A stretch of 64,000 nucleotides of DNA from an uncultured Collinsella sp. (GTDB lineage Bacteria > Actinomycetota > Coriobacteriia > Coriobacteriales > Coriobacteriaceae): assembly GCA_937980385.1 (NCBI GenBank), contig CALJPV010000005.1, forward strand, positions 87,429 to 151,428, given 5' to 3'. Positions 5,852 through 56,709 of the stretch are shown one piece after another; position 1 is the first letter of the stretch; every line of letters begins with the position of its first letter. A program made the translations under genes and the position numbers. The notes beneath the pieces were generated by a model. It did no database searches, was not told the DNA's origin, and saw nothing but the letters and a program-made list of their open reading frames with translations.

Positions 5852-6285
5852 GCCCGATTGTGAAACCATGTGGCTTGCAGGTGCGGCGGTTCCGAAACGT
5901 CCCCATCGGTCGCCATCGGACCGTACGAAACCGTATGAAATACAAGAACAAGTGTTCTATTACTATTCCCGCTTAGTGACTAATCCAATCCGAGTGTTGT
6001 CGATGCGTGTCGCGTCGTACCGCCTAAGGACTGATTCGTGCGCAATTTGGGCGAATCAGGCCCTTGATTCCCGATTTCGGGAATGACCCAATTGATTCGC
6101 GAAACCGCAGGTCGCTTCTTTAATCAATCCCGGGTTTCCACCGGGATTCGTAGCGAGTGGCTTGAAAAGGAGTGATTCAAAGGGTCGGAGAGATGCGTCT
6201 TGGCCAAGAAATAAGGTTAGCCTTATCTTACTGCATGATTCGTGTGTTATAGTTAGATGGCTCTAACTGTTTGGGGGCGATAGCC

Positions 6286-7507: not shown

Positions 7508-7622
7508 GGGCATCAAGCACGGGTATTTTTGCATCCATCCTGCACATAGCGATAGGCATGACGGTCATAGCGGCTGTGCTGGCGGCAATTGTGACAGTTT
7601 TTATTCACTGAGGAAGAAACCT

Positions 7623-8453
7623 ATGAAATGTAAAATTGAGAAAAACACCGTTCAGGAGACGCTGATCCTCCCGCTGTATTCCCGGAAGCTGTGTACGGAG
7701 CTGTACCCGAACCTTTATAGGGATGAAACAGCGGTTCGTCTGCTCGACCAAATCGACTACGACTTTTCAGAGGCAGAGAAAAACTCCCGCAGCCTGATGC
7801 AGCGCTTTGGTGCGCTGGAGGTGGCCGCACGGCAGAGTGATCTTGCTTTCGAGGTGCGGGATTACCTGAAAGGCCACCCCAATGCGGCGGTGGTCAATCT
7901 GGGCTGCGGGCTGGACAACACCGGCAGAACCTGCGACAACGGTAGATGCAAGATCTACAATCTGGACTACCCGGATGTGATTGCCTTGCGGCAGCAGCTA
8001 CTGCCCGCCGGGGATCGAGAACAAAATATCCCCTGCGACCTGAAAGACACCGCATGGTTTAGCAAAATCGATACCTCCGGCGGGGCGGTGTTCTTTGCCT
8101 CCGGGGTGTTCTATTACTTTCTGACCCAGCAGGTCCGGGAACTGGTGCGGGGGATGGCGGACGCTTTCCCCGGCAGTGTGCTGGTCTTTGATGCTGCCAA
8201 TCGGACGGCAGTAAAGATGATCGCAAAAACATGGCTTAAGACTGCAAAAATCAAGGATGTGGGGGCATATTTTGCGGTTTCGAATGCCGCCAAGGAAATC
8301 GGCACGTGGGACAGCCGTCTGCAGGTCACAAGTCGCGGCTATATGCTGGGTTACAACGATTTGAGAGACCCTTCTGTCAGCGGCTTTTTCCGGTTTCTCG
8401 CAAGGGTCGGTGACAACGGGATGAAAATGCAAATCGTGAAAATAAGATTTTGA
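7623..8453 (+). CDS. class I SAM-dependent O-methyltransferase (TcmP / leucine carboxyl methyltransferase-like)
   Basis: GAGGAAG RBS; VVNLGCGLDNTG motif and overall LCM-family layout; 276 aa. Confidence 0.75.
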   Translation: MKCKIEKNTVQETLILPLYSRKLCTELYPNLYRDETAVRLLDQIDYDFSEAEKNSRSLMQRFGALEVAARQSDLAFEVRDYLKGHPNAAVVNLGCGLDNTGRTCDNGRCKIYNLDYPDVIALRQQLLPAGDREQNIPCDLKDTAWFSKIDTSGGAVFFASGVFYYFLTQQVRELVRGMADAFPGSVLVFDAANRTAVKMIAKTWLKTAKIKDVGAYFAVSNAAKEIGTWDSRLQVTSRGYMLGYNDLRDPSVSGFFRFLARVGDNGMKMQIVKIRF

Positions 8454-8541
8454 GAGGAAAAAAATGAAGCGCATTCACTTTGACGTTGGAGAAGACGGCT
8501 TTTACGGCGCATATTGGGCGTGCAAGGACACACATACAGCA

Positions 8542-8598
8542 GCGGGCACGGATTCGATTGAAACCGTGCCCGCTATCTTATGCTATATTATTTTTTCG
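8542..8598 (+). terminator. rho-independent terminator after methyltransferase trio
   Basis: GCGGGCACGG...CCGTGCCCGC hairpin followed by T-rich tract. Confidence 0.65.
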
Positions 8599-8608
8599 AA
8601 CGTCTGTT

Positions 8609-9284
8609 CTACTCCCACTCGATAACAAGATCCGCAGGTAGAAGTGTAGTCCAGTTATTTGCACCACAAATTAACAGGCGTTTCTTCAACTGAATTTGGT
8701 CCTCATTTGGTCCCCACGCATAAAACGGAAAGGCCGATTCAAGATCTTTAATCAACTGGATCGTCCTTTGGTGGACATTTGACCCAACGATATTTCTCAT
8801 CGTCAAGGCGCGCGGCCAACTCATGGCGATCTCTATAGCGCAATGCTATAGGTTTAGGGAAAAGATCGTCTTTTACGGAAGCAATCAACTCGTGAGGCGC
8901 ATTGTTGTCTATCAGCGAAATCATTGCAAGGACATATCCGCTATAAAGACCGTCCACATAACCCGTTTGGTGCAAATTTTCAATAAGTAAATCATTTGGC
9001 AAGCCGCCATATCCACTTGGCAGTAAGCCTTCTTCTACGAGCTGAGAAGACCATAGGGAGATGATCTCATCCTCGTCTTTCTTGCTAAGTTTTCCTAGAA
9101 TATCATCAATATCGATGCCCTGAACTTTATCGTTAAGGTATGCGAACAAGATCCGAATGAGGGTCTTGACCATCGAAGACAACTCGCGATTGATTTCTTT
9201 CTTTACCTCATTAGCGACTCCGTCGCCCAATTTTGTTTCTTTATTCATATCCTTTACCCTTCCTAGCGGCATGTCCCGAAGCAT
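8609..9284 (-). CDS. low-GC hypothetical protein, apparently split by a frameshift (ORFs 8748-9284 and 8609-8824 overlap in different frames)
   Basis: Two protein-like AT-rich ORFs (178 aa and 71 aa) overlapping by 77 nt in different frames; no recognisable domain; lies between the methyltransferases and res. Confidence 0.4.
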
Positions 9285-9503
9285 ATGCTCCGACTCGTCA
9301 ACAAAGGAAGCGCTTGCTAAGCAAACGCATACCCCTTCTTGAAACGCTCGTCGAAGGGGCAGAAATCGCTATAAAAATGGCCGTCAATAAGCTGTGAACC
9401 GTTCGGTTGACGTATCGACCGCCTTGATTCCTCGTTTTTCTCCTTTGTTGTTTTGTGTAGCCCTAAACTGAGCACACTTCGGAGTCGGTATCCAATCAAT
9501 CTT

Positions 9504-25300: not shown

Positions 25301-26056
25301 ATGGCGCGAGCCATCTTCCAAACTATTTATGACAACGTGAAGCAGTCGATTGACGACGGCACATACGCCTATCAGAGTTATCTGCCTTCGGAAACTGAGC
25401 TCACGCAGCTGTTTGACTGTTCGCGCATGACGGTCCGTCGCGCCATCTCGATGCTTGCGGCAGATGGTTACGTGCTCCCCCAGCAAGGCAAAGGCATGCG
25501 CGTCATTCGGAACATCAGTGACGAGAAGAGTCGTGGTGGCGGCGGACTCGAGACCTTTAAGGAAATCGCGGTCAACCGAGGCTTTGAGCTCAAGACTGTC
25601 ACCACCGTCTTTGAGCTCCTCATCTGCAGCAAGGCGCTCTCCAAGATTACCGGGTTTCCCGAAGGCTGTGAGCTCACACGCGCCAAACGCATCCGTTATG
25701 CAGACGGACAAGCCGTGTGCTCCGACGACTCCTATTACCTAAGCTCACAAGTACCGGGGCTGACACCCGAGATTGTCAATGACTCGATCTATCGTTACCT
25801 CGAAGAAGACCTTGGCATTAAAATTGCCACGGGCAAACGCGATGTGACGATCGAGCATCCCACTCCCGAGGATGCGCGCGTGCTCGATCTCGACGATTTT
25901 AACGCACTTGGCGTTGTACGCGGACAGACCTACAACGCCGACGGTATCCTTATGGAATACACCGAGACCAAACAGGTCCCCGGGTTCTTTTTGCTCCATG
26001 AAACCGTGACGCGTAACGGTACCGGTCGAACCGGCCACCAAAGCAGCATGAGCTAA
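25301..26056 (+). CDS. GntR-family transcriptional regulator (HutC/UTRA subfamily)
   Basis: N-terminal wHTH (LPSETELTQLFDCSRMTVRRAISML) plus UTRA effector domain; 251 aa. Confidence 0.8.
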   Translation: MARAIFQTIYDNVKQSIDDGTYAYQSYLPSETELTQLFDCSRMTVRRAISMLAADGYVLPQQGKGMRVIRNISDEKSRGGGGLETFKEIAVNRGFELKTVTTVFELLICSKALSKITGFPEGCELTRAKRIRYADGQAVCSDDSYYLSSQVPGLTPEIVNDSIYRYLEEDLGIKIATGKRDVTIEHPTPEDARVLDLDDFNALGVVRGQTYNADGILMEYTETKQVPGFFLLHETVTRNGTGRTGHQSSMS

Positions 26057-26187: not shown

Positions 26188-27441
26188 CTAGTCCGCGAGC
26201 TTCTCCACCTGGTCGAGCATCTTGTCAAGCTTGGCCTTTGCCTCGGCCTTGACCTTCTCAGCTTCTTCGTGAGCCTTCGCCTTCTGGGCAGCCTTTTCCT
26301 CGGCTTCGGGGTCGACGACAACCAGATTGGACGCGTCATGCTCAACCAACTTGAGCGCATGCTCGGGGCACACCTTGGCACAAGCGCCGCAGCCCAAACA
26401 ATACGTGGACTCCAACGCAAAGCGACCGCTTCCCACCAGGTCACAGGCAGATGTGGGGCACGCATTGACGCACTCTCCGCACGACGTGCACTTGTCAAAA
26501 TCGCACTCCGGCGTACTCACCTGTATGTTCTTGGCAAGCTCGGGGTGGTTTTGCAGCGTCGAGAGCACCAGCTGCCGCCCGTGCGTGAGCGAACGGCGAC
26601 GCTTGGTTGTCGTGGTGCCGCACATGGTGTTGAGCGTGCGCTCCAGCTGGGTAATCTGATGGCGATGGGCCTTGAGCTTTTGCGTCACCGAGGCTAGCGC
26701 CGCCGTTGCCGGGTTGAGCTTGGTCACGGTAAGGCCCGTGGTGCGGGCGATCTTTTCCATGTACTCCTTGCGCTCGTACTCGCGAAGCTTATGGCACTTG
26801 AGGCTCTTGGGGTCGACCTCCAGACCCATACCCGTGCCAGACCACTCCTCGGCCTTCGCAATCGCCTCGCCCAGAATGTCCTCACCGCCGATGTTGCGGC
26901 ATTTATCGCACACGCCCAACGGCAGGTACACGCTCACGTTGGGATAGTCCGCCAGTACCGAGAACCAGGTCTCGGCCGTAATATCGCCCACGCAGGCAAC
27001 GACAACTTCGTTTTCGCGCGGCATGCGCTTGAGGGCGCGCGTGCAGGTGACGTAGGCGGTCTCGTGGCTCGTAGCCGCCGAGACAATGTCGTCATACAGG
27101 TTTTTAGGCGCCAGGCGCGGCGAGATGATCGCCTCGGTCGGACAGGCAGCGGCGCACAGGCCACACTTGCGACAGGAGTCGAGGATCTCGATGGCGTCTT
27201 CCTCGACCTCGATAGCGTTGACCGGGCACACGTCCATGCACGCGGTGCAGCCGCTCTTCTCGTTTTTACAGGTCAGGCACGGAATGGTGTTGCCGCGCGG
27301 ACGCTCCTTGTAGTCGGCAGGATTCCACTGTGGCGCCGACGGATCGAGTGCATCGGTCACACCGCCAAGCGGGTTTTTTAGAAAGTCGAAACCCTTGCTG
27401 ATCTCGATAATGTCATCAAACAGATCGTGTTCCTGCGCCAT
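26188..27441 (-). CDS. 4Fe-4S cluster-binding protein (two ferredoxin-type Cys pairs at each end, coiled-coil K/E-rich C-terminus)
   Basis: CxxCxxCxxxCP motifs near both termini; start ATG 27441; 417 aa. Confidence 0.7.
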   Translation of the reverse strand: MAQEHDLFDDIIEISKGFDFLKNPLGGVTDALDPSAPQWNPADYKERPRGNTIPCLTCKNEKSGCTACMDVCPVNAIEVEEDAIEILDSCRKCGLCAAACPTEAIISPRLAPKNLYDDIVSAATSHETAYVTCTRALKRMPRENEVVVACVGDITAETWFSVLADYPNVSVYLPLGVCDKCRNIGGEDILGEAIAKAEEWSGTGMGLEVDPKSLKCHKLREYERKEYMEKIARTTGLTVTKLNPATAALASVTQKLKAHRHQITQLERTLNTMCGTTTTKRRRSLTHGRQLVLSTLQNHPELAKNIQVSTPECDFDKCTSCGECVNACPTSACDLVGSGRFALESTYCLGCGACAKVCPEHALKLVEHDASNLVVVDPEAEEKAAQKAKAHEEAEKVKAEAKAKLDKMLDQVEKLAD

Positions 27442-27592
27442 GCGCGGCCCCTCCCTGAGCAGTGCAAACAAGCAAGAGATAATGATACGCTATCGGCCCA
27501 CGCCTCGGGCAAATTATACGCGGAGCATCTTTGCGGCAGATAGCCTATGGCCTATCGCCGCCCCGATTGCACAAGGTCAATCAAGCGCCAAG

Positions 27593-28660
27593 CTATGCCT
27601 CGCACATGAGCTGCACGAGCTTCTGTTTGGTCACCTTGGCCTGCTCGTTGGCCATATTACGCTCGTTTCTAAAGACCGCATTTGCAACACCCTGCAGGTC
27701 GGCATCGGAAATCTCGCCAAGGCCCAGCTCCTCGAGCGTCGTCGGCAGACCAACGCGCTGGCAAAACTCGAGCACCTGATCAAGCTCGGGCGCACGCTCC
27801 AGGCGCAGCTGCACCACCAGGCCAAATGCCACGGCCTCGCCATGCATGGCCTTGCACTCGGGCAGAATCGTCAGACCGTTGGCGATGGCATGCGCCAACG
27901 CCAAGCCACCGCTTTCAAAGCCGACGCCCGAGAGCAGAATATTGCACTCGATCAGACGCTCAACCGCCGGCGATATACGTCCCTTTTTGAGATCGCGCTT
28001 GGCAGCGACGCCGCACTCCATGAGCGTGTCGTAGCAGGCGCGAGCCGCGACCAGAGCCAAGTGCCCCGGCTCGCCACCGTGCTCGTTGGTACCGTGCGCC
28101 GCGGCGCACGAACGCGCCTCGAAGTACGTTGCCAGTGCGTCGCCCATGCCAGCGACCGTCATACGCAGTGGGGCTGCCGCGACCACGTTGGTATCGACCA
28201 CGACCAGGTCTGGATTCTTCTCGAGCATCAGGTAGTGGTCGAACGACCCATCCTCGTGATACAGCACCGAAATCGCGCTGCACGGACCGTCCATCGAAGC
28301 CGCCGTGGGGCATACGCACAACGGCAGCTCGGCATAAAACGCTACTGCTTTGGCGATATCGAGCATTTTGCCGCCGCCAATACCCACCACCATGTCGCAA
28401 TACTCGGCCTGGGCTTCCTTAGCCATTTCGACAACGGCCTCTTCCGTACACGGACCGTCATAAATCTTAAAGAACGGCTCACTTAGATCTTCGTCCAGAA
28501 ATCCATCGACAATCTGCTTGCACAGCCGATCCTCGGTGCCCTGGTCAAACAAGACATAAGCAGCGCAGCCCAACCATGACAAATACCTGCCCTGACGCGA
28601 AAGTTCGCCCGGCCCCTGAACATACCGGCCGGGACCGCCATAAACCATGGGAAGCGCCAT
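27593..28660 (-). CDS. gldA: glycerol dehydrogenase (Fe-ADH family)
   Basis: GIGGGKMLDIAKAV, metal-binding His pattern typical of GldA; 355 aa. Confidence 0.8.
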   Translation of the reverse strand: MALPMVYGGPGRYVQGPGELSRQGRYLSWLGCAAYVLFDQGTEDRLCKQIVDGFLDEDLSEPFFKIYDGPCTEEAVVEMAKEAQAEYCDMVVGIGGGKMLDIAKAVAFYAELPLCVCPTAASMDGPCSAISVLYHEDGSFDHYLMLEKNPDLVVVDTNVVAAAPLRMTVAGMGDALATYFEARSCAAAHGTNEHGGEPGHLALVAARACYDTLMECGVAAKRDLKKGRISPAVERLIECNILLSGVGFESGGLALAHAIANGLTILPECKAMHGEAVAFGLVVQLRLERAPELDQVLEFCQRVGLPTTLEELGLGEISDADLQGVANAVFRNERNMANEQAKVTKQKLVQLMCEA

Positions 28661-28804
28661 ACGAGAATCCGCCCTTCATCAAACAACGATTGGTGCAAAG
28701 TAACTTGCCCCCTGCACCAACTTGTGCATTGGAGACAGGCCACTTTGCACCATAGTAAAAAGGGGCAAAGTCATCTGCTGGCTTTGCCCCTTCCTTAGCT
28801 TGAT

Positions 28805-29905
28805 TTACTCATCCATGAGATAGTAGTGGCCCAGCGCGTCGGCACCCAGGATGGCGTTTGCGACCATCTCGGGCGTCACCTCAAACGGCATGTTGCACAT
28901 GGTGTCATCGGGTGCGCAGGCGGCCTCGGCAACAATCATGGCCTGCTCGCGCGTAAGCTCGGCAACGCCAAGTTCCTTCATCGTGACCGGCAGGCCCAGC
29001 TCAATGCAGAAGCCCAAGACTTCCTCGAGCTTCTCGGTCGGGGCATCCTCGAGTACCAGCTGGACGATGGTGCCGAAGGCGACCTTCTCGCCGTGATACA
29101 TGCCGTGGCACTCGGGCAGCATCGTCAGGCCATTGTGGATGGCATGAGCAGCAGCAAGGCCCGAGCTCTCAAAGCCAATGCCCGAAAGCAGCGTATTGGC
29201 CTCAATGATGTGCTCGACGGCAGGCGTGAGCGCACCCTTCTCCAGCGCGACCTTGGCCTTGACGCCATCGGCCATAAGCGTCTCGTAGCAGAGCTTGGCG
29301 AGCGCCAGGCCGGCCATGCCGCCCTTGCCGCCGGCGCAAGTGCCGCCGTCGGCATCATGCGTCGCCTGGGCCTCAAAGTAGGTTGCGAGCGCATCGCCCA
29401 TGCCGGAAACCGTCAGGCGCACCGGGCTCGCCGCGATAACCGTCGTATCCATAAGGACAATATTGGGGTTTGCCTTAAGGAAGAGATACTTGTCGAACTG
29501 GCCGTCGTCGGTGTAGAGCACCGAAAGTGCCGAGCACGGAGCATCGGTCGAAGCAATGGTGGGGCAAATGATGACCGGGGACTCCAGGTAGTAGGCAACG
29601 GCCTTCGCGGTGTCGAGGATCTTGCCGCCACCGACGCCGACGATGATGTCGCAACCGTTGTCGCGCGCGAGCGCAACCAGACGATCGACCTCACCCTTGG
29701 AGCACTCGCCGTTAAAGTCATCGAACAGCAGCTCGGCCTTGGCCTCGGCAAAGCCGCCCTCGATCTTGGCACCGACGCGCTTCTTGCCCGAAGGCGTCAC
29801 GATGACGAGGGCCTTAGCGCCGAGCGGCTCAACATAGGAGCCGAGCTTTGCGAGCTCGTCCGGACCCTGGATGTACTTGCTGGGGCTATTGAAAATTGCA
29901 GCCAT
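28805..29905 (-). CDS. gldA: glycerol dehydrogenase paralogue
   Basis: MAAIFNSPSKYIQGPDELAKLG..., GVGGGKILDTAKAV; ~50% identical to neighbour; 366 aa. Confidence 0.8.
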   Translation of the reverse strand: MAAIFNSPSKYIQGPDELAKLGSYVEPLGAKALVIVTPSGKKRVGAKIEGGFAEAKAELLFDDFNGECSKGEVDRLVALARDNGCDIIVGVGGGKILDTAKAVAYYLESPVIICPTIASTDAPCSALSVLYTDDGQFDKYLFLKANPNIVLMDTTVIAASPVRLTVSGMGDALATYFEAQATHDADGGTCAGGKGGMAGLALAKLCYETLMADGVKAKVALEKGALTPAVEHIIEANTLLSGIGFESSGLAAAHAIHNGLTMLPECHGMYHGEKVAFGTIVQLVLEDAPTEKLEEVLGFCIELGLPVTMKELGVAELTREQAMIVAEAACAPDDTMCNMPFEVTPEMVANAILGADALGHYYLMDE

Positions 29906-29988
29906 AACTATCCCATTCTCTAAAAGAAAAAAGAAAGGGGCTCCGTACGGATACGTGCGGAGCCCCTCGTTACGATAACAAGAGTCGA

Positions 29989-31212
29989 TTAGAAATCGAT
30001 GTCGGTGTCGTAGTAGCAGGCCTTGAGGATCTTCTCGAAGTCGGCAGCCTTGGTCTCACGCGGGTTCTCCGGCGTGCAGGCGTCGGTCTCGGCGTTCGCG
30101 GCGATCTCGGGCAGCTTGGCGAGGAACTCCTCCTCGGAAACCATCTGCGGGTTCTCGGCGTCGACCTTCACGCCGCCATTCGCGTAATCCTTGATGGACT
30201 GCGGAATGTTGAGCTGGTCGTTGAGGTCGCGAATCTTCTGGACGAGCGCGGCGATGAGCTCCTCGTTGGTCTCGCCGGGAAGGTGCAGGATCTCCTTGGC
30301 CACGTAAGCGTAACGCTCGGCAGCACGGGGATCCTTGGAGTTCCACTGGATAACCTTGCCCAGGTACATAGCGTTTGCGGCACCATGGATGATGTGACCG
30401 TTCTCGAAGGCAGCACCGGTCTTGTGAGCCATGGAGTGAACGATGCCGAGCAGGCCCGAGGAGAAGGCGATACCGGCGATGCACTGAGCCTCGTGCATGT
30501 GCTGACGGGCCTCATGGTCGCCAGCATAGGACTTGGGCAGCCACTCGACGATCTCGCGGATGCCGTGCAGAGCGTTGGCGTCGGTGAACATGGAAGCGCA
30601 GGTGGAAACGTAGGCCTCCATGCAGTGGGTCAGAGCGTCCATGCCGGTGTGAGCGCACAGCTTGGCGGGCATGGTGTAGGTGAGCTCGGGGTCGACGATG
30701 GCGACATCAGGGGTGATGTTGAAGTCGGCCAGCGGGTACTTGATGCCCTTGGCGTAGTCGGTAATGACGGAGAAGGCAGTGACCTCGGTAGCGGTACCGG
30801 AGGTAGAGGAGATGGCGCAGAAGTGAGCCTTCTGACGCAGCTCGGGGAAGCTGAACGGCTGGATGATGTTATCGAAGGACTCCTCGGGATACTCGTAGAA
30901 GACCCACATGGCCTTAGCGGCATCGATGGGCGAGCCGCCGCCGATGGCGATAATCCAGTCGGGCTCGAACTCGCGCATGGCCTCGGCGCCCTTCATGACC
31001 GTCTCGATGGACGGATCGGACTCGACGCCCTCGAACAGCTTGACCTCCATGCCGGCCTCTTTGAGGTCGGCCTCAACGTCCTGCAGGAACCCGCCACGGC
31101 GCATAGAGCTGCCGCCAGAAACGATGATGGCCTTCTTGCCCTTGAGGTTCTTCACCTCGTGGCGAGCGCCCTCACCAAAGTACAGATCACGAGGATTGGT
31201 AAAACGTCCCAT
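29989..31212 (-). CDS. iron-containing alcohol dehydrogenase (DhaT/FucO/lactaldehyde reductase-like)
   Basis: Start MGRFTNPRDLYFGEGA with AGGAGG RBS (ORF-track start 31263 rejected); GGGSPIDAAK motif; 407 aa. Confidence 0.8.
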   Translation of the reverse strand: MGRFTNPRDLYFGEGARHEVKNLKGKKAIIVSGGSSMRRGGFLQDVEADLKEAGMEVKLFEGVESDPSIETVMKGAEAMREFEPDWIIAIGGGSPIDAAKAMWVFYEYPEESFDNIIQPFSFPELRQKAHFCAISSTSGTATEVTAFSVITDYAKGIKYPLADFNITPDVAIVDPELTYTMPAKLCAHTGMDALTHCMEAYVSTCASMFTDANALHGIREIVEWLPKSYAGDHEARQHMHEAQCIAGIAFSSGLLGIVHSMAHKTGAAFENGHIIHGAANAMYLGKVIQWNSKDPRAAERYAYVAKEILHLPGETNEELIAALVQKIRDLNDQLNIPQSIKDYANGGVKVDAENPQMVSEEEFLAKLPEIAANAETDACTPENPRETKAADFEKILKACYYDTDIDF

Positions 31213-31712
31213 ACTGTGCCTCCTAAACAAGCCCCTCTTAGACTTGCGTATATAACGGAGCACCCGATTGGCTCCGTCAGGACCGTTTTGCGCGTTGCCG
31301 GCGATGACAATGCGCGATGTCTAAACGTCTCAACGCTCAGACAAACACTATTCTACCGTTCTGGTTGGTCAGTTATTCACCTAAAGCCGACAATGATGAA
31401 ACGTTTTTTCTATCCCTGAAGACCCTTGTGGGGCATTCATACTCCCAAGCTGGGCAAACGTTTTATCAAGGTTGCCCACATATCCCGGGCAGGACTGTGC
31501 CCCTCCAAAATGCGCCCCGTTCGCCGCCAAAAATCGACCGTTTGCGGCACCGTGATACCACTCAGTCGTCCAAGGTGCCGACATTTGTGCGACATCCGTC
31601 TTCGTGGTGCAAAGGTGCATGTCCAAGTGCGGCACCCCCCGTGTGCCACATGCGGGTAAACTAGAACCTTATATAGAGACATTTGAACCCTAACCGCAGC
31701 AAAGGAGGCCCC

Positions 31713-32789
31713 ATGGCATTCGATCCCATTCAAGAGGATTGCCATCGCCTCGTTCTTGAGGCCTTGCGCCGCGACAATATCCCGCTCACCGACGGTGCCG
31801 CCGTAGAGCGTCTGATGGAACAATTCACCCGCAACCCCGCGCCGCTCATCGTGCACGACCGCGACCGCGCCGGGCACCTCATTGCCAAGGTGGTCGAGGC
31901 TGTCGACTACCGCATTCCCTTTATCCCTGACGATACCCAGGCAGAGCAAGAAGAGGCCGCTGCCGAGAACATGCTTCGCGAGGCAGCCGCGCTCGACCCC
32001 ACCAACTGGGATGCCCAGCGCATGCTGGCCGCCCTCACCGCCAACTCCAACGAGGAGTACGTACAGTACCTGGTATCCAAGCGCGATGAAGTCGAGCACG
32101 ACCTGGCACTCAAGATCGCCTCGGCGCAGGACCCCTACGAGCGTGAGGCCGCAGGCGACCTTATGCGCCGCCCCTACCTGCGCTGGCTTGCCGCCCTTGC
32201 GTCGCGCGCCCTCATTAGCGGCCGCTATCGCATGTCGCTCGAAGCCGCAAACTGCAGCCTCGACTTTGCCCCCAACGATCCGGCCGGCGTCCGTCACACC
32301 GCGATGCTCGCCATGGCGAAGCTCGAATACCCCGCCGAGGAGCTCAAGCGCTTTCGCTCTGCCCACTCCGTCCCCTATCTCACCAACACGCCGCTACGCC
32401 GTCGTCCCAAGGACGCGGAGCGCGACTTGGACCCATGGACGCTCATCGCGCTGATGAGCGCTGCCTGGCGCGAGCTGGACTACGAGGGTGCCGAGCACTA
32501 CTTGCGCATCCTTGCACGCTCGTGCCCACACGCAGCCGAGGCGCTCTATTTCCAAACCGAGTTTCCCGATGGCGTCTATGCCCGCGTCAACGTGGGCGTG
32601 GGCTCCACCGACGAGCTTGTCCTTGCGCTGTCCGAGGCGACGCCGGTACTGCAAGAGGGCTTGGGCGCCCCCGACAACGCCAGCTTTGCCGCCTGGGTCG
32701 CCACCAACGATATCGTGCGTTCCCAGATTGACGAGCGCATCCTGCGGGCGGCCGAGCAGGGCCTGCCGTTTAAGGGAGGAGACCTCTAA
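31713..32789 (+). CDS. hypothetical helical protein (unknown function)
   Basis: AAGGAGG RBS; 358 aa acidic alpha-helical; stop TAA overlaps next ATG (TAATG). Confidence 0.6.
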   Translation: MAFDPIQEDCHRLVLEALRRDNIPLTDGAAVERLMEQFTRNPAPLIVHDRDRAGHLIAKVVEAVDYRIPFIPDDTQAEQEEAAAENMLREAAALDPTNWDAQRMLAALTANSNEEYVQYLVSKRDEVEHDLALKIASAQDPYEREAAGDLMRRPYLRWLAALASRALISGRYRMSLEAANCSLDFAPNDPAGVRHTAMLAMAKLEYPAEELKRFRSAHSVPYLTNTPLRRRPKDAERDLDPWTLIALMSAAWRELDYEGAEHYLRILARSCPHAAEALYFQTEFPDGVYARVNVGVGSTDELVLALSEATPVLQEGLGAPDNASFAAWVATNDIVRSQIDERILRAAEQGLPFKGGDL

Positions 32790-33832
32790 TGGATCCGAGC
32801 GTCTACATCCCCGCCTACCTGGAGCGCGCCTACCTTGCGTCGCACCCCGAACTCACCGATGCAGCACGCGAGCTTGTCCATAACGACGTGAGCGTCAACC
32901 CTCATAAGTATGCGCAGACCGAGCATGCCCAGGCACTGCTGTCCTATGCAGGCGTCCACCGCCACCTGCTCGACGAGCTCCATCGCATCGAGGACATGGG
33001 CAGCGACGAGGAGTTTGAACAGACGCGCAACCACCTGTTCGACGATACGCGCGATGAGCTGCTCAAGATCGTCCGCGTCGACGCGCTGGCCGTCGATGCC
33101 CAGCTGCTCGCCATCATTTTGGCGGACACGCCCGTCGACGCCTGTCTGGGCGACCTGATGAAACTCGAGGCGACCACGACCGATTACCTGCAGCAAAGCG
33201 TGCCCGGGTTCGACATGGAGGCCCCGCACTACTGGGCCAACAAGGTGCTGGCAGACGGCGTGACGGCGGCCGATCTCACCGTAAGCGAGCCGGCTCTTAT
33301 CGGGTGGCTCCACACGCTCGAGGCCATCTCGCAGCTGTGCATGGCGAGCGCTCGCTACCGTGCTGCCGCCAACTACGCCCGCCGCGTCCTTAAGGCGGAA
33401 GGCTATCCCACCCGAGCTGCAGGCACCGTGCTACTCGCCCTCGCTCGCCTAGAAGACGAGGACGGCTTTTTTGCCCTGGCCCACCAGCTCGAGGAGCAGA
33501 TGGGGGCCGATACCCTCGAGAACTCCCCCTGGTACCTGCTCGCCCGCACGATCTTGCTGTTCAAAACGAACAAAATGCGCCCGGCGACACGCGCGCTGCG
33601 TGAGTTTGCCAACCGCTGCGAGGGCGGCGCGTTCTTTTTGCTGAACCCCATGTATCAGACGCCGTATCTTCCCTGCCGGCCCGAACCGCACGACCCCTGG
33701 GACCTTTCGCATCAGGCAGTTTGGGAGGCCGACGGCATCATCTCGGATACTCCCGACTTTGCCCCCTGGGCCAGCGCTTGCGAAGACGTATCGCAGCTTG
33801 CCCAGGAATTTGCGCGCCGCTACGGCTTTTAA
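32789..33832 (+). CDS. hypothetical helical protein, translationally coupled to upstream gene
   Basis: 347 aa; similar composition and architecture to the upstream protein; 45 nt upstream of murT-gatD. Confidence 0.6.
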   Translation: MDPSVYIPAYLERAYLASHPELTDAARELVHNDVSVNPHKYAQTEHAQALLSYAGVHRHLLDELHRIEDMGSDEEFEQTRNHLFDDTRDELLKIVRVDALAVDAQLLAIILADTPVDACLGDLMKLEATTTDYLQQSVPGFDMEAPHYWANKVLADGVTAADLTVSEPALIGWLHTLEAISQLCMASARYRAAANYARRVLKAEGYPTRAAGTVLLALARLEDEDGFFALAHQLEEQMGADTLENSPWYLLARTILLFKTNKMRPATRALREFANRCEGGAFFLLNPMYQTPYLPCRPEPHDPWDLSHQAVWEADGIISDTPDFAPWASACEDVSQLAQEFARRYGF

Positions 33833-33877
33833 CGGCACAAACGTCACGACCATGTCATTCACGTTAGGAACGGCTTC

Positions 33878-36055
33878 ATGAACTTCCGCTCATCTCTCGC
33901 CTGCACCTCGAGCGATATCGCCCGCTGGGGACTGCGCTCCGTCCTTAAGCGCCAGGGCGGCGTACTCCCCGGCCGTATCGCCATGAAGATCGACCCCGAG
34001 CTGCTAAGCGACCTCGCGGGCCTTGTCGACCGCAGCGTGGTGATCACCGGCACCAACGGCAAGACCACCACCTCCAACCTCATCGCCGATGCCGTTGCCG
34101 CCAGCGGCGCCACCGTGGTATGCAACCGTGCCGGAAACAACATGGAGCCGGGCGTGGTGGGCGCGTTGCTCGAGGCGCGCGGCAACCTTAAGCGAACCGC
34201 CAGCAGCAAGCGCGTAGGCGTCTTTGAGTGCGACGAGCTCTACACGGTGCGCGTCCTGCCCAAGCTCAAGCCGACCTACTTTGTGCTGCTCAACCTGTTC
34301 CGCGACCAGCTGGACCGCTACGGTGAGATCGACCACACCCAGGACGTCATCGCCCACGCGCTGGAGCTTTCGCCGACAACGACGCTCATCTATAACGCCG
34401 ACGACCCGCTGTGCGCCGCGATCGCCGCGCGCGTTCCCAATGCAAGCATCGCCTTTGGCATCGACGGCGCCACCGACACCGAGTCCGATCGCATTAGCGA
34501 CTCGCGCTTTTGCTCGCAGTGCAACACCCCGTTGGAGTACGACTACGTGCAATACGGCCAGCTCGGCGCCTATCATTGTCCTTCGTGCGGCTGGAGTCGT
34601 CCCGCGCTGGTCCGTCGCGTGACAGGCGTTGAGCTCACCTGCAGTGGCTACGGCTTTGACCTGAACTTTGGACCCGATACCGACGCACCTGCAACGCACA
34701 TCGTCACGCGCTACAACGGCCTGTACATGGTCTACAACGTTGCCGCCGCCTTCTTTGCGGCGCGCGAGCTGGGCGGGGACGCGGCGCATCTGCAGCCCAC
34801 GCTCGATGCCTACGTCCCCGCCGGCGGACGCATGGGCCGCTGGGAGATCGCCGGCCGCACCGTCGAGGCAAACCTGGCCAAAAATCCCGTGGGCTTCGAT
34901 CGCCAGATCCAGTCCATTAAAACGGCAGGCGGCAGGCTCTGCGCCTTCTTCCTGAACGACAACGACGCCGACGGCCACGATGTCTCGTGGATCTACGACG
35001 TCGACTTCGAGCGCATCGCCGACACCCCAGGGCTTGTCGCCTTTGCCGGAGGTACGCGCGCGCACGATATGCAGGTACGCCTGAAGTACGCCGGCATCGA
35101 CGCCGCCATCATCGCGAATATCGAGCAGGCGATCGGCGCCGTGGCAGACGAGGAGGCTGGCGACACTTTCTACGCCGTCGCCAACTACACGGCCTTCCCG
35201 CCACTGGTCAAGGAGCTCGACGAGCTTAAGGGCGCCGATGCGAGCTCGGTTGCCTCCCACGCCGCAACGCGCACCGATGGCAGCGCTGTCCCCACCGATA
35301 TTGCGCCGGTCGAGCTCTCGCGCCCCCTGCGCATCGTCTACCTGTATCCCGATGCCCTCAACCTCTATGGCGACGGCGGCAACGTCATTGCCCTCGAGCG
35401 CCGCTGCGCCTGGCGCGGCATTCCCGTGCGTGTGGATGAGGTCCGTATGGGCGAGTCGCTCGATCTCACCGACGCCGACATCGTTATGATGGGCGGTGGC
35501 TCCGACCGCGATCAGCTTGCCGTGGCAAACGAGCTGTTCGCTCAAAAAGACAAGGTTGCGGCCTATGTTGAGGATGGCGGCTCGCTGCTCGCCATCTGCG
35601 GCAGCTATCAGCTGCTCGGCCGTTCGTACTATATGGGTGAGAATCGCATCGAGGGCCTGGGCGTCATTGCCGCCGAGACCGTGCGCGGCTCCGATCGCCT
35701 GATCGGCAACGTCGCCGTCAAGACCGACCTGGCACCCGAGCCCTTTGTGGGATTTGAGAATCACGGCGGCCGCACCCTGCTCGATGCAGAGGCCACGCCG
35801 CTCGGAACGTCTGTCGTCACGGGCACCGGCAACAACGGCGACGATGGCTTTGAGGGTCTCATCTACAAGGGCGTCATCGGCACGTACCTACACGGACCGG
35901 CACTGCCCAAGAACCCCGAGCTCGCCGACTGGCTCATCGCCCACGCTCTCGAGCACCGTGGCGATGCACAGACCACCGCCCTGCTGCCGCTCAAACCCCT
36001 CGACGACGCTTACGAGCACGCTGCCCACGACGCCGCCATGAAGCTCCTCCCCTAA
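33878..36055 (+). CDS. murT-gatD: fused lipid II isoglutaminyl synthase: MurT (Mur ligase-like) N-terminal ~470 aa plus GatD (class-I glutamine amidotransferase) C-terminal ~240 aa
   Basis: N-part aligns to S. aureus MurT (GTNGKTTTSNLI, FRDQLDRYGEIDH, YDYVQYGQLGAYHCPSCGW, DGHDVSWIYDVDFE); C-part aligns to GatD (LNLYGDGGNVIAL, MGGGSDRDQ, ICGSYQLLG, GFENHGGRT, GTYLHGPALPKN); single uninterrupted 725-aa ORF. Confidence 0.85.
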   Translation: MNFRSSLACTSSDIARWGLRSVLKRQGGVLPGRIAMKIDPELLSDLAGLVDRSVVITGTNGKTTTSNLIADAVAASGATVVCNRAGNNMEPGVVGALLEARGNLKRTASSKRVGVFECDELYTVRVLPKLKPTYFVLLNLFRDQLDRYGEIDHTQDVIAHALELSPTTTLIYNADDPLCAAIAARVPNASIAFGIDGATDTESDRISDSRFCSQCNTPLEYDYVQYGQLGAYHCPSCGWSRPALVRRVTGVELTCSGYGFDLNFGPDTDAPATHIVTRYNGLYMVYNVAAAFFAARELGGDAAHLQPTLDAYVPAGGRMGRWEIAGRTVEANLAKNPVGFDRQIQSIKTAGGRLCAFFLNDNDADGHDVSWIYDVDFERIADTPGLVAFAGGTRAHDMQVRLKYAGIDAAIIANIEQAIGAVADEEAGDTFYAVANYTAFPPLVKELDELKGADASSVASHAATRTDGSAVPTDIAPVELSRPLRIVYLYPDALNLYGDGGNVIALERRCAWRGIPVRVDEVRMGESLDLTDADIVMMGGGSDRDQLAVANELFAQKDKVAAYVEDGGSLLAICGSYQLLGRSYYMGENRIEGLGVIAAETVRGSDRLIGNVAVKTDLAPEPFVGFENHGGRTLLDAEATPLGTSVVTGTGNNGDDGFEGLIYKGVIGTYLHGPALPKNPELADWLIAHALEHRGDAQTTALLPLKPLDDAYEHAAHDAAMKLLP

Positions 36056-36062
36056 CGCCCCG

Positions 36063-36105
36063 CCACCACAAAGGGGACAGGCACCTTTGTGGTGGTTTTG
36101 ACCTG
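36063..36105 (+). terminator. rho-independent terminator after murT-gatD
   Basis: CCACCACAAAGG...CCTTTGTGGTGG hairpin then TTTTG. Confidence 0.7.
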
Positions 36106-36114
36106 CCACGGCAG

Positions 36115-36254
36115 TTTGTCTCAATCTGTAACATCTAGACCGTTAAAAGTCGTCTTACTGTTACAGAACGAGATGTTCGTCCCGACGCCCGCCGTTTGTC
36201 TCGATCTGTAACAGATAGAGCCGATTTGCCTGCCCAGATGTTACAGATTGAGAT
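36115..36254. repeat. array of four copies of a 16-20-nt motif (GTTTGTCTCRATCTGTAACA) in alternating orientation forming two long hairpins
   Basis: Copies at 36115-36134 (+), 36159-36174 (rc), 36195-36214 (+), 36239-36254 (rc); also a TGTGGTGGTTTT direct repeat at 36091 and 36286. Confidence 0.7.
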
Positions 36255-36354
36255 ATTTGAAAATCAGGATAGGGAGCCAGCTCCTGTGTGGTGGTTTTCC
36301 AGTTTGCCAACGATATACGCGCCGGCAAAAAAGTCTGCTATACTCTTTCCCGCT

Positions 36355-36431
36355 GTCCCCATCGTCTAGCGGCCAAGGACGCCACCCTTTCAAGGTGGAT
36401 ACCGCGGGTTCGAATCCCGCTGGGGGCACCA
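36355..36431 (+). tRNA. tRNA-Glu (anticodon TTC), CCA encoded
   Basis: Cloverleaf by eye: acceptor GTCCCCA/TGGGGGC, anticodon loop CTTTCAA, T-arm GGTTCGAATCC; TATACT -10 box ~8 nt upstream. Confidence 0.85.
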
Positions 36432-36442
36432 CAGAATCTGAG

Positions 36443-36475
36443 AAGCCCGTTACCAATTCGGTAGCGGGCTTTTTG
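36443..36475 (+). terminator. terminator hairpin after tRNA-Glu
   Basis: AAGCCCGTTACC / GGTAGCGGGCTT stem, TTTTT. Confidence 0.7.
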
Positions 36476-36602
36476 CTACCCATGCGCCGGGATTCGAACC
36501 CGACAGGGTGCGGAGCTGAGGAAACGCGCAAGCGTTTTCCAGCGCAGCACGCGAGGAGCGGAGCGACGCAGCGGAAGCGAGCGGCGGAAGCCGCACGCGG
36601 AC

Positions 36603-36620
36603 ATCCCGCTGGGGGCACCA
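36603..36620 (+). repeat. 18-nt exact duplicate of the tRNA-Glu 3' end (ATCCCGCTGGGGGCACCA)
   Basis: Identical to 36414-36431; intervening 171 nt contain a tRNA T-arm-like GGGATTCGAACCC fragment and GC-rich simple repeats. Confidence 0.8.
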
Positions 36621-36632
36621 ACTCAAAAATGT

Positions 36633-36675
36633 ACGAACCCGCCGGATGTAAGGTCCGACGGGTTCGTTCTTTTTG
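36633..36675. terminator. bidirectional rho-independent terminator
   Basis: ACGAACCCG...CGGGTTCGT stem with T-tracts on both strands; downstream of minus-strand gene 36711-37472. Confidence 0.65.
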
Positions 36676-36710
36676 CCGTTATAAAACGAAAAATACTCAA
36701 TGCCCTTGCG

Positions 36711-37472
36711 CTAGATAAACAGCTCGCACTCCTTCCGCTCGGCACAGGCTTTGCTCAACATCTTGGTAGCCGCAGAGAGCATGATGGGGTTTACCGCGCG
36801 GGCGGCATGCAGACATACGGCGACACAGCGCATGCAAGAGATGCAGGCCTTTTTGTCCACCCGCTTGGGATCGTCTTTATCGATAGCGCCAACAGGGCAC
36901 GCTGCGGCACAAGCCCCGCAAGCGGTGCACTCTTTTGTGGCCTTGGGCACCATACCGGCGCCCCCGGCCTTCTTATAGGGACGATTGCCCGGAATAGCCG
37001 GCTCAGAAGCATCTCCTGCAGATATCTTTTGCTGAATCTGATTCGCAAACCCAGCGAGCTGCGCCGCGTCCTGTGGGTCTGGCCGACCGGCTGCAAACTG
37101 GCGAACAATAGAATGCTCGGCGATGGCAGAAACCGCCGCGATCACCCGAAAGCCCGCGCCCTTTGCCGCATCCTCAAGCTCGACCAGCGTGTCCTCATAC
37201 GCGCGGTTTCCGTAAACACAAACCAGAACCGCCTGCGCACCGTTTCCCCGCATCATACCCAAGCGCTCCGCAGCCACAGCCGGGACTCGCCCGCCATACG
37301 AGGGCACCGCGATCACGGCTACATCCTCTTTTGTCATCGCAACTGTGCGAAAACCAAGCCCGCTATCGGTCAGATCTACAGCAACGGTTTCCCCTTCCAA
37401 CGCATTGGCAATGTAGCCAGACGCCTTTTCCGTTCCGCCGGTCGGGCTAAACACGATATCGAATACCTTCAT
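36711..37472 (-). CDS. flavodoxin-like domain fused to 4Fe-4S ferredoxin domain (EFR1-family ferredoxin)
   Basis: Start MKVFDIVFSPTGGTEKA with AAGGGGAGG RBS (ORF-track start 37637 rejected); C-terminal CTACGACAAACP...CISCMRCVAVCL; 253 aa. Confidence 0.75.
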   Translation of the reverse strand: MKVFDIVFSPTGGTEKASGYIANALEGETVAVDLTDSGLGFRTVAMTKEDVAVIAVPSYGGRVPAVAAERLGMMRGNGAQAVLVCVYGNRAYEDTLVELEDAAKGAGFRVIAAVSAIAEHSIVRQFAAGRPDPQDAAQLAGFANQIQQKISAGDASEPAIPGNRPYKKAGGAGMVPKATKECTACGACAAACPVGAIDKDDPKRVDKKACISCMRCVAVCLHAARAVNPIMLSAATKMLSKACAERKECELFI

Positions 37473-37656
37473 CGGATCATCCTCCCCTTTATGAACAAAC
37501 GCCCGAAACGTCCGCGTGCCAAAACAGGTTACAACTTTCAAGATGCCCCGCGCGAAACGCCCGCTCGGCTGCAAGTTCAAAGCAGGTCCGAGCGACATAA
37601 AAAGAAGGGGCCTCGCACTGGCGAGACCCCTTCGCACGCAAAATCAAACGCGTCTG

Positions 37657-39744
37657 TTACACATAGAACAGGATGTCGTCGTAGGTCGGGACCGGCCAGT
37701 AGTCGGCGGCCACGATCTCCTCCATGGCATCCACGGCGGCGCGCAGCGTATCCATAGCGGGAACGACCTCGTGTGCATACACGTTGGCCTGCTCCTGACC
37801 ATCGAGGGCTTCGGCCTTTTGATGCACGGCGTCGAGCGCCTTGATGGAGTCGTTGATGGTGGTGATACCGTTGCAGAGCTTGTTGAGCGTGTTCTGCTCG
37901 CACTGCATGGCGGCCTCGGCACCGGCGGCACGAATAGTCTCAAGGCCCTTAGCGACCTTGGTGGCATAGGCGGTAATGACCGGGCGATAGGTGCGACGCG
38001 CCTCGCGAACCATCGTGGTGGCCTCGATGTTCATGAGCTTGTTGTACTTCTCGAGCTTGCAGTCGTAGCGGCACTGGGCCTCGGCCTTGGTCAGGACACC
38101 CGTCTCCTCAAAGAGCGCAATGGCCTTATCGGAAACAAAGGCGGGCAGGGCGTCGGCCGTGGTCTTGTTGTTGGCAAGGCCGCGCTTCTCGGCCTCAACG
38201 GGCCACTCGTCGGAGTAGCCATCGCCGGAAAAGAGGATGCGCTGGTGGTCGGTCAGGACCTTCTTGCAGTACTCGAGCGCAGCGTCCTGGAACTCATCCT
38301 CGGGCGTACCCTCAAGCGCGTCGGCGAAGGACTTGAGCGACTTGGCCACGGCGGCATCGAGCACCAAGTTGGAGTCGGAGACGTTCTGCTCGGAGCCGCA
38401 GGCACGGAACTCAAACTTGTTGCCGGTGAAGGCAAACGGGGAGGTGCGGTTGCGGTCGGTGTTGTCCTGCATCAGCTTGGGCAGGGTATCGGCGCCCAGG
38501 TCGAGCACGCCGCGCGTGGCATGGACGGAAGCCTTGCCATCGATGATCTTCTCGACGACCTCGGTAAGCTGGTCGCCCAGGAAGATGGACATAATCGCCG
38601 GAGGAGCCTCGTTGGCGCCCAGACGATGGTCGTTGCCGGCCGAGGCAACGGAGGCACGCAGGAGCTCCTGATAGTTATCGACGGCCTCGATCACCGCGGT
38701 GAGGAAGACGATGAACTGCAGGTTGTCGAGCGGGGTGTCGCCCGGATCGAGCAGATTCTCGGACTCGGTGCCAAGCGACCAGTTGTTGTGCTTGCCCGAA
38801 CCGTTAATGCCCTCGAAGGGCTTCTCGTGCAGCAGGCAGACCAAGTCGTGGCGGGAGGCGATGAGCTTCATCTTCTCCATCATGACCAGATTCTGGTCGA
38901 TGGCCTCGTTGACCTCGCCATAGACCGGTGCGAGCTCATGCTGGCAGGGAGCGACCTCGTTGTGCTTGGTCTTGGCGGGAATGCCAAGCGCCCACAGTTC
39001 ATCGTCCAGGTCCTTCATATAGGCCGAGACGGTGGGGCGGATAGCGCCAAAGTAGTGCTCCTCGAGCTCCTGGCCCTTGCAGGGAGCAGCACCAAAGAGG
39101 GTGCGGCCGGTGATGACCAGGTCCTTGCGCTTGCGGTAAGCGTCCTTCTTGATCAGGAAGTACTCCTGCTCGTCACCCACGGAAGGAACGACCTTCTTGG
39201 GGGTCTTGCCAAACAGCGCCAAAACGCGCTTGGACTCACGCGAGAGCGCGGTCATGGAGCGCAGCAGCGGGGTCTTCTTGTCCAGGGCCTCGCCCGTGTA
39301 GGAGCAGAAAGCCGTGGGGATGCACAGGACATCGTCCTTAATGAAGGCGGGGCTAGTGGGGTCCCAAGCGGTGTAGCCACGGGCCTCGAAGGTAGCACGC
39401 AGGCCACCGTTGGGGAAGCTCGAGGCATCGGGCTCGCCCTGGATGAGGTTCTTGCCCGTAAACTTGGTAATGGCGGTGCCGTCGTGGTTGGGCTCCAGGA
39501 AGCTGTCGTGCTTCTCGGAAGTAATGCCCGAAAGCGGCTGGAACCAGTGCGCGTAGTGCGTCGCGCCCTTGGAGATGGCCCAGACCTTCATGGCGTGGGC
39601 AACGGCGTTGGCCACATCCAGGTCGAGCGGCTCACCGCCCTCGAGGGTTGCAGCAAGGCGCTTCCAAATGTCCTTGGGGAGGTAGTCCTTCATGACTTCC
39701 TCAGAGAACACCATGGTCCCGAAGCGGTCAGTAAGTTCGGCCAT
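37657..39744 (-). CDS. glnN: glutamine synthetase type III
   Basis: ~695 aa, GSIII-length, start [30 protein letters not shown] with AAGGGAG RBS; conserved GSIII N-terminal and catalytic regions. Confidence 0.8.
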
Positions 39745-39954
39745 ACGGAACTCCCTTCGTATCGGCACCGCGTGAGAAGCGGTGTTGATTACTAACGAAC
39801 GAGTCATAGCTTAGACTCGCCGTGTTTCCGCGACATTACCGTTATGTTGCCGTCGCGAAACCAATCAATGAGGTTACCCTATCGAGGCGGCGTTGCCACC
39901 CTCAACAGTCAATCAACTGCATAAATTGCAGACCTCTCCCCATGGTTTAAGGGT

Positions 39955-56345: not shown

Positions 56346-56709
56346 TGGTGGAGGCGCGGAGAATCGAACTCCGGTCCACGAAAGCCCCCTGATTGGCATC
56401 TCCAAGCTCAGTCGCTGGTTTAGTCTCGGACGCTTTGCGCGCAGCGACACGCTCGCGGCGTCCTAACCGGTTCGGTCTTAGCCTGCGCCATACCGATTAC
56501 GTGCGCAGGAGCATTCCCCTAACATGACGTCGCGCCGGTGTCGGGGAAATCACCGGGTTGACGCGCCGCTATAAACTAAGCAGCGAGAGCCATAGGCTCA
56601 AAAGAAGAGTTGTTGTCAATTCAATTTGACGGTACCCCTGTTTAACGAGGCGAGGAGACCTCGGCTTGCTTCCTCTCTCAGAGCTATCGTGTCGAAACCA
56701 GTCGCCCCC
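56346..56709 (-). ncRNA. ssrA: tmRNA (SsrA)
   Basis: 5' GGGGGCGACTGGTTTCGACACG and 3' GGAGTTCGATTCTCCGCGCCTCCACCA tRNA-like halves with G3-U70 pair; internal tag ORF ...GAC AAC AAC TCT TCT TTT GAG CCT ATG GCT CTC GCT GCT TAG (DNNSSFEPMALAA*). Confidence 0.85.

Follow-up and report, generated by a model that had tools for sequence, protein, structure and literature searches.

In a stretch of 64,000 nucleotides (nt) from an uncultured Collinsella sp. (assembly GCA_937980385.1, contig CALJPV010000005.1, positions 87,429 to 151,428 of the forward strand), referred to here as the window, homologues of MurT and GatD, the two subunits of lipid II isoglutaminyl synthase, are encoded by one gene as a single polypeptide of 725 amino acids (aa). 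With a probability of about 0.88, we consider this protein to be a single-chain lipid II isoglutaminyl synthase whose halves are joined by a fast-evolving flexible tether, and a form typical of its lineage, both in Collinsella and across Coriobacteriaceae and Eggerthellaceae. The analysis covered the integrity of the open reading frame (ORF), its domains, the catalytic residues and how well they are conserved, the fold of each half, the distribution of the fusion across lineages and the homology of the junction. The fused form as such is already known, from the literature since 2012 and from tens of thousands of proteins annotated in public databases. The novelty is minor: in two Coriobacteriia families fusion is the rule, not 'rare', other phyla have it again, and its linker corresponds to the N-terminal tail of GatD.

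Domains, catalytic residues and predicted structure

A first-pass annotation of the window, made from the letters alone, had proposed that MurT and GatD share one uninterrupted ORF, that both halves are homologous to the Staphylococcus aureus proteins and that an Ala/Ser-rich linker lies between them. All three proposals were borne out. The ORF list and Pfam place both halves in a single frame on the forward strand (Table 1), and the linker, in frame and devoid of stop codons, contains 7 Ala and 5 Ser in its 35 aa. In a sequence search of the PDB, S. aureus MurT (7q8e_A) was the first match (E=6.4e-69, query aa 12-448), and S. aureus GatD (6gs2_A) the best match to the C-terminal part (E=1.6e-46, query aa 484-695); with such E-values for both halves, a chance ORF is ruled out. 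Three Pfam domains were detected, all above their gathering cut-offs: Mur_ligase_M (PF08245, aa 56-215, 49.8 bits against a cut-off of 24), MurT_C (DUF1727, PF08353, aa 333-439, 96.6 bits against 25) and the CobB/CobQ-type GATase_3 (PF07685, aa 485-679, 126.2 bits against 27).

Residue conservation was assessed in an alignment of 15 divergent fused proteins, 32-64% identical to the window protein (A1), and in a second alignment of 32 homologues (A3), which also served as input to the structure model. Residues G58-K62 of the P-loop, C212, C215, C234, D368, R607 and H672 are invariant in A1, and C574 is present in 14 of its 15 sequences. In A3, C574 occurs in all 32 sequences, and the four cysteines C212/C215/C234/C237, D368 and H672 are likewise invariant. 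The region of these four cysteines lines up with the CxxC...CxC of S. aureus MurT in the alignment to 7q8e_A and gives a weak Pfam DZR match at aa 207-239. S. aureus MurT D349, situated in the DNxxDGxD loop of the C-terminal domain, is the third member of the GatD catalytic triad (PMC10050696). The window protein thus shares with the MurT/GatD complex the P-loop, the Cys4 ribbon, this Asp (D349, here D368), the Cys/His pair of GatD (C94/H189, here C574/H672) and the glutamine-binding Arg of S. aureus GatD (R128, lined up with R607). No residue of known importance in the enzymes of S. aureus and Streptococcus pneumoniae is lacking.

Among the fused representatives, one of 794 aa (P0145) carries VDSGFQ in place of (I/V)CG(S/G)YQ, at about columns 750-760 of A1, and the nucleophilic Cys is missing. 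Judging from its sequence, this protein may have lost its glutaminase activity, or the sequence may contain an error.

Structure prediction of the fusion, a check that the first-pass annotation had proposed, recovered both folds: the AlphaFold2 (AF2) model has a mean predicted local distance difference test (pLDDT) score of 85.4 and a predicted template modelling (pTM) score of 0.75, the latter of which suggests a defined arrangement. When the model was compared with the PDB by Foldseek, the MurT chains of 6FQB and 9SQ9 (S. pneumoniae and Streptococcus pyogenes) ranked first, with a template modelling score (TMt) of 0.80, followed by GatD chains with TMt 0.85-0.89, the top ones including 6GS2 and 5N9M, and the MurT and GatD chains outranked pMurC, MurE, MurF and MurC. 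The predicted conformation of the MurT half is nearer to the streptococcal structures than to those of S. aureus (TMt 0.59-0.61). Beyond the GatD domain, the model places helices at residues 697-700 and 711-721 of the C-terminal tail.

Predicted function of the fused protein

Based on its sequence, the fused protein is very probably the lipid II amidating enzyme. The mechanism is taken from the two-subunit enzymes of S. aureus and S. pneumoniae (PMC3266927, PMC6085368, PMC6113224), and it is from these that we infer the enzyme activity, the substrate and an intramolecular MurT/GatD interface. In the MurT part, ATP bound at the P-loop (G58-T64) would activate the alpha-carboxylate of D-Glu at position 2 of the lipid II stem peptide. 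In the GatD part, glutamine would be hydrolysed by C574 and H672, with D368 of the MurT C-terminal domain completing the triad, and the released ammonia would turn D-Glu into D-iso-glutamine. Fusion would alter only how the halves are held, that is, intramolecularly, in a 1:1 ratio, from one start codon and co-translated. A 1:1 stoichiometry fixed in this way may reasonably be expected, and the sequence of the fused enzyme gives no sign of altered chemistry.

Several points weigh against this reading. The NCBIfam equivalog models for MurT (NF052464 and NF045635) scored 262 and 235 bits against a trusted cut-off of 800, and those for GatD (NF052463 and NF045636) scored 192 and 179 bits against cut-offs of 450 and 400; these models are the top matches nonetheless, yet none of the cut-offs was reached. 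This accounts for the generic NCBI name 'MurT ligase domain-containing protein', and the assignment therefore rests on 30-40% identity and on motif conservation. The loop that contains D368 is the least confident region of the AF2 model, residues 364-366 having a pLDDT below 50. In the literature searched, no biochemical or muropeptide data for D-Glu amidation in Collinsella were found; a review of gut peptidoglycan gives no amidation data for this genus. As for the multiple origins of the fusion described below, the neighbour-joining tree behind them is rough and carries no support values.

These missed thresholds, together with an identity to characterised enzymes of only about 30-40%, would fit a protein that is a MurT/GatD-like ligase-amidotransferase with another substrate or product, and not the canonical lipid II D-Glu amidase. 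It might, for instance, act on another carboxylate in the stem peptide or the cross-bridge of Coriobacteriia, whose stem peptide is unusual. Archaeal MurT-like paralogues with other roles exist (PMC11915815). We nevertheless regard this possibility as quite unlikely: all residues known to be important are conserved, including the triad-completing Asp of MurT and the Cys4 ribbon, the best matches in sequence and structure are MurT/GatD complexes, well ahead of MurC/D/E/F and pMurC, and the split orthologues in the sister family Atopobiaceae form ordinary murT-gatD operons.

The linker between the two halves

Among 117 Collinsella-type homologues, the linker has a mean identity of 37.7%, compared with 76-79% in both domains, and its length ranges from 31 to 68 aa, changing in multiples of 3 nt. 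The frame has been kept across many in-frame insertions and deletions, a pattern that marks the linker as a selected, translated tether and not as the product of an error. In the AF2 model it is coil except for a short helix at residues 455-459, and its position corresponds to that of the N-terminal tail of the free-standing GatD of Atopobiaceae.

The gene could be fused and the enzyme still be a two-chain heterodimer, if a separate GatD were made by internal initiation or by proteolysis of the linker. The linker is of low complexity, evolves fast and differs in length between homologues, which would suit a tether accessible to proteases, and its homology in position to the tail of free GatD would also agree with this idea. 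An internal start for a separate GatD was, however, rejected: codons 425-500 contain no in-frame ATG, GTG or TTG, which makes separate initiation unlikely. Moreover, the linker is modelled at a pLDDT of about 85 and not as a disordered segment, and the uninterrupted frame is kept across families at 32-64% identity. Production of two chains from the fused gene is thus very unlikely, and a single-chain enzyme remains the preferred reading.

Integrity of the gene

Whether a locus is split or fused was decided by a stop-to-stop test, which asks whether both halves lie in one stop-free frame. The number of query residues matched proved misleading as a criterion and was discarded; adjacent split genes, such as those of Staphylococcus, also give matches spanning about residues 1-716. 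The matches listed in the genome scan span 600 stretches, and the counts derived from them describe a sample of loci and not frequencies.

The fusion in the window is real and not an assembly artefact. The exact 725-aa protein falls within a 90%-identity cluster of 25,845 members in a collection of 15 billion proteins; the members are named as Collinsella sp. and come from NCBI, JGI, ENA and Logan assemblies. The best 120 matches to the window protein are all fused and have all three Pfam domains (64-95% identity, 651-795 aa), and 10 of 10 complete Collinsella loci among the matches listed, from GTDB species-representative genomes, are fused as well. Fused genes are also found in the isolate genomes of Eggerthella timonensis and Paraeggerthella hongkongensis. 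In principle, a one-base error could merge two genes, given that most sampled bacteria have an overlapping or abutting pair (58 of 80 loci among the matches listed), and the closest split MurT among the representatives (P0143, 54% identity), a single-member cluster from a metagenome-assembled genome (MAG) labelled Slackia, shows that fused and split calls are both possible among near relatives. Even so, a missed stop or frameshift hiding two true genes is effectively refuted by the size of the cluster, the thousands of independent assemblies in which the ORF is likewise uninterrupted, the uniformly fused homologues and complete loci, the isolate genomes and the linker lengths in multiples of 3 nt, and has virtually no probability left.

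Distribution of fused and split forms

The first-pass annotation had described the split arrangement of Staphylococcus and Streptococcus, which was found again in three loci (L023, L053 and L064), and split adjacent murT-gatD genes prevail in the other phyla sampled, accounting for the 58 of 80 loci mentioned above, in line with published descriptions. It had also implied that the fusion is unusual. This part did not stand, as both the best 120 matches to the window protein and the best 120 Eggerthellaceae-type matches are all fused; the fusion is the common annotated form across the clade, with NCBI, UniRef and JGI annotating these fused proteins.

The Eggerthellaceae-type matches were obtained with a profile built from fused proteins of 40-47% identity and are 728-816 aa long. 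They include P. hongkongensis, E. timonensis (on a 3.9-Mb contig), Ellagibacter isourolithinifaciens and Eggerthellaceae bacterium 3-80, and some bear the JGI name 'lipid II isoglutaminyl synthase (glutamine-hydrolysing)'. In the sister family Atopobiaceae, the genes are mostly split. Of the 120 best matches to an Atopobiaceae MurT, 116 are MurT-only, most of about 450 aa, among them Olsenella and Olegusella, and the remaining four are fused proteins of 713-735 aa that are close relatives.

An exhaustive search of 1.84 billion representatives at 50% identity found both halves, in the order MurT then GatD, in 31 of the best 150 matches. These 31 fused representatives have linkers of 19-175 aa and an identity to the window protein that goes down to 31%, and some of the fused clusters are named 'Lachnospiraceae bacterium' or 'Firmicutes bacterium', which places them in Bacillota. 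One apparent Firmicute fusion, on a 5-kb MAG contig named 'Butyrivibrio sp. CAG:318' (L011, CAVGAF010000102.1), was rejected: because its GC content is 64.8% and its fused gene groups with Eggerthellaceae proteins, it is probably Coriobacteriia DNA mis-binned into a Firmicute MAG.

In a neighbour-joining tree of 182 MurT domains, the fused proteins fall in at least seven or eight separate places, and this scattered placement points to repeated fusion, fission or transfer. Fusion is standard for Collinsella and for the Eggerthellaceae (Eggerthella, Paraeggerthella and Ellagibacter). It is sporadic among Atopobiaceae, most of which are split, and also turns up in several lineages unrelated to these.

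Origin of the fusion

The closest split relatives are those of Atopobiaceae. In a typical genome of this family (locus L081, GCA_050953285), MurT (449 aa) and GatD (266 aa) are 47% and 53% identical to the corresponding halves of the window protein. The two genes overlap by 8 nt (ATGAGTAG) and lie in different frames. The GatD begins with MSSTQTTPTSPAAPATPSGAAKK, directly ahead of the conserved LRIxHLYPxLLNLYGD core, and this low-complexity tail, rich in Ala, Pro, Ser and Thr, resembles the window linker in composition and is positioned exactly as the linker of the window protein and of a fused Atopobiaceae-like protein (L082). In ten other split loci (L012, L014, L018, L022, L027, L036, L059, L065, L066 and L067), murT and gatD share the same frame and are parted by a single stop codon.

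With an 8-nt overlap or a single stop between the genes, one small insertion or deletion or one stop-codon substitution turns the split form into the fused one. The most likely starting point is an ordinary murT-gatD operon in which the murT stop was lost or a small frameshift took place, and the low-complexity N-terminal tail of GatD would have become the linker upon fusion. A linker that pre-existed as this tail, combined with fusion in a single step, would explain both the recurrence of the fusion and the poor conservation of the linker. We infer the direction of these split/fused events from the comparison of present-day loci.

Two further arrangements were observed among split loci. In an Atopobiaceae MAG (L024, 2983-5592), the central domain of MurT has an insertion of about 90 aa, and between murT and gatD there is a 240-nt spacer that keeps the frame but contains two stops; the spacer is compatible with a linker decayed after fission. 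At eight loci of Thermoleophilia, Solirubrobacterales and Miltoncostaeaceae (L030, L034, L041, L044, L062, L065, L066 and L067), the GatD domain begins about 750 nt past the murT stop. In the four of these that were tested (L034 and L065-L067), the domain is part of a longer frame free of stops, and Pfam gives no match to the first 230-260 codons of that frame. This stretch could extend GatD at its N terminus, could hold an intervening gene that is read in a different frame, or could be open by chance in high-GC DNA.

That covalent tethering is itself under functional selection in Coriobacteriia, and not a neutral fusion of the Rosetta-stone kind, we think unlikely. The linker, which is ordered and packed on the surface in the AF2 model, might control the channelling of ammonia or the closure of the domains, or it might suit the enzyme to the peptidoglycan of the class, which is unusual. 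If tethering were selected, the repeated switching between split and fused forms (Atopobiaceae mostly split, Coriobacteriaceae and Eggerthellaceae fused, and at least 7 other fused lineages) would be a result of selection acting on the stoichiometry of expression.

The murT-gatD locus and other features of the window

The features of the locus are listed in Table 1. No sigma-70-like promoter was found by a scan of positions 31400-36800. The hairpin downstream of the gene is only suggestive as a terminator, since the five terminator-like sites in the scanned region do not exceed the expectation from shuffled sequence (3.8 +/- 2.0).

Table 1. Features of the murT-gatD locus, in window coordinates
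Feature	Position	Strand	Details
Shine-Dalgarno-like AGGAA	33866..33870	+	7 nt upstream of the ATG; direct reading of the sequence
murT-gatD fusion coding sequence, complete	33878..36055	+	ATG start, 725 codons and stop; ORF list
MurT half, aa 1-448	33878..35221	+	Mur-ligase central domain and MurT_C; 7q8e_A, Pfam, Foldseek
ATP-binding P-loop GTNGKTT, aa 58-64	34049..34069	+	G58, T59, N60, G61 and K62 invariant in 15 fused proteins
Cys4 zinc-ribbon insert, C212/C215/C234/C237	34511..34588	+	Cysteines present; central domain of MurT
D368 codon	34979..34981	+	Equivalent of S. aureus MurT D349; GHD aligned to GRD (HMMER, 7q8e_A)
Linker ELKGADASSVASHAATRTDGSAVPTDIAPVELSRP, 35 aa, aa 449-483	35222..35326	+	Between the MurT and GatD halves
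GatD half, aa 484-695	35327..35962	+	Class-I, CobQ-type glutamine amidotransferase; 6gs2_A, Pfam, Foldseek
C574 codon, GatD nucleophile (S. aureus C94)	35597..35599	+	ICGSYQ aligned to ICGGYQ of 6gs2_A/5n9m_A
H672 codon, GatD catalytic His (S. aureus H189)	35891..35893	+	GTYLHGP identical in S. aureus GatD
C-terminal helical tail, aa 696-725	35963..36052	+	74.8% mean identity among Collinsella-type homologues
Weak terminator-like hairpin	36087..36111	+	32 nt past the stop codon; consensus scan
tRNA-Glu	36355-36431	+	
4Fe-4S ferredoxin-domain ORF	36711-37637	-	Between tRNA-Glu and glutamine synthetase
Type III glutamine synthetase	37657..39807	-	Convergent to murT-gatD; Pfam GSIII_N, Gln-synt_C, Gln-synt_C-ter

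Directly upstream of murT-gatD lie two co-directional ORFs of 368 and 347 aa (31683-32789 and 32789-33832, +), which overlap by ATGA and have no Pfam or NCBIfam match. In 10-11 Collinsella loci the pair occupies the same position, with an aa identity of 94-98%, and it may be co-transcribed with the fusion. Downstream, 8 Collinsella loci have the glutamine synthetase gene (about 99% aa identity) in the same place beside murT-gatD, and so does the fused Atopobiaceae-like locus L082 (5029-7119, -, 58% identity); the gene is absent from the split Atopobiaceae locus L081. A producer of glutamine thus adjoins the glutamine-consuming amidotransferase. The ferredoxin-domain ORF has no counterpart in the Collinsella loci fetched, in which glutamine synthetase lies about 0.8 kb past murT-gatD, and it looks like a strain-specific insertion.

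Elsewhere in the window, three tandem paralogues of iron-containing alcohol dehydrogenase (355, 366 and 424 aa) occupy positions 27593-31263 (-), adjoining a multi-4Fe-4S protein (26188-27471) and a GntR/UTRA regulator (25301-26056). A tmRNA gene is located at 56346-56709 (-), with the tag peptide ARQPGDFPDTGATSC. Positions 6001-10000 have a GC content of 0.49-0.54, compared with a window mean of 0.60, and may have been horizontally acquired.

Comparison with known systems

The MurT/GatD complexes of S. aureus, S. pneumoniae and S. pyogenes (6GS2, 6H5E, 7Q8E, 6FQB and 9SQ9) have the same two modules as the window protein, and their operons the same order. Unlike these complexes, the window protein, at 30-40% identity, consists of one chain with a 35-aa linker and not of two subunits from adjacent genes, and the single ORF is its one architectural departure from them. 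The fused proteins of Eggerthellaceae have an identical three-domain architecture, 43-48% identity to the window protein and the same invariant residues. Their linkers are longer and unrelated in sequence, the proteins stand apart as a block of their own in the distance tree of MurT, and they carry the same generic 'MurT ligase domain-containing protein' annotation. Natural fusions are also known among other cell-wall ligases and among pairs of glutamine amidotransferase and synthase. A comparable event is the MurE-MurF fusion (PDB 8F5D; cited in PMC11915815), which appears among the fold matches and follows the same logic of adjacent partner genes becoming one ORF, although its partner domains are different and include no amidotransferase.

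Natural fusions of MurT and GatD are discussed in the literature searched only by Figueiredo et al. 2012 (PLoS Pathog 8:e1002508; PMC3267633), who reported merged murT-gatD ORFs in three Actinobacteria (Fig. S1) and called them rare. Collinsella belongs to the same phylum, and the window gene is likewise merged; in contrast to the 'rare' of that report, two Coriobacteriia families have fusion as their normal form, and fused genes are found beyond Actinomycetota too. The structure papers of 2018 and Munch 2012 mention only engineered tag fusions, and a literature search for MurT with Coriobacteriia, Eggerthella or Collinsella found nothing relevant.

Significance of the fused form

S. aureus, S. 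pneumoniae and Mycobacterium tuberculosis are species in which MurT/GatD is essential or important, and the enzyme is pursued as a drug target. A natural single-chain enzyme could be a handy reagent for structural and inhibitor work, as its stoichiometry is guaranteed and co-expression is not needed. The fusion also independently confirms MurT and GatD as an obligate 1:1 pair. The survey corrects the impression of rarity left in 2012 and reveals no new biology; for the reading of genomes, it means that a 'MurT ligase domain-containing protein' of about 720-820 aa in Collinsella or Eggerthellaceae should be read as a complete lipid II isoglutaminyl synthase, and that the lack of a separate gatD in those genomes does not amount to a gap in the pathway.

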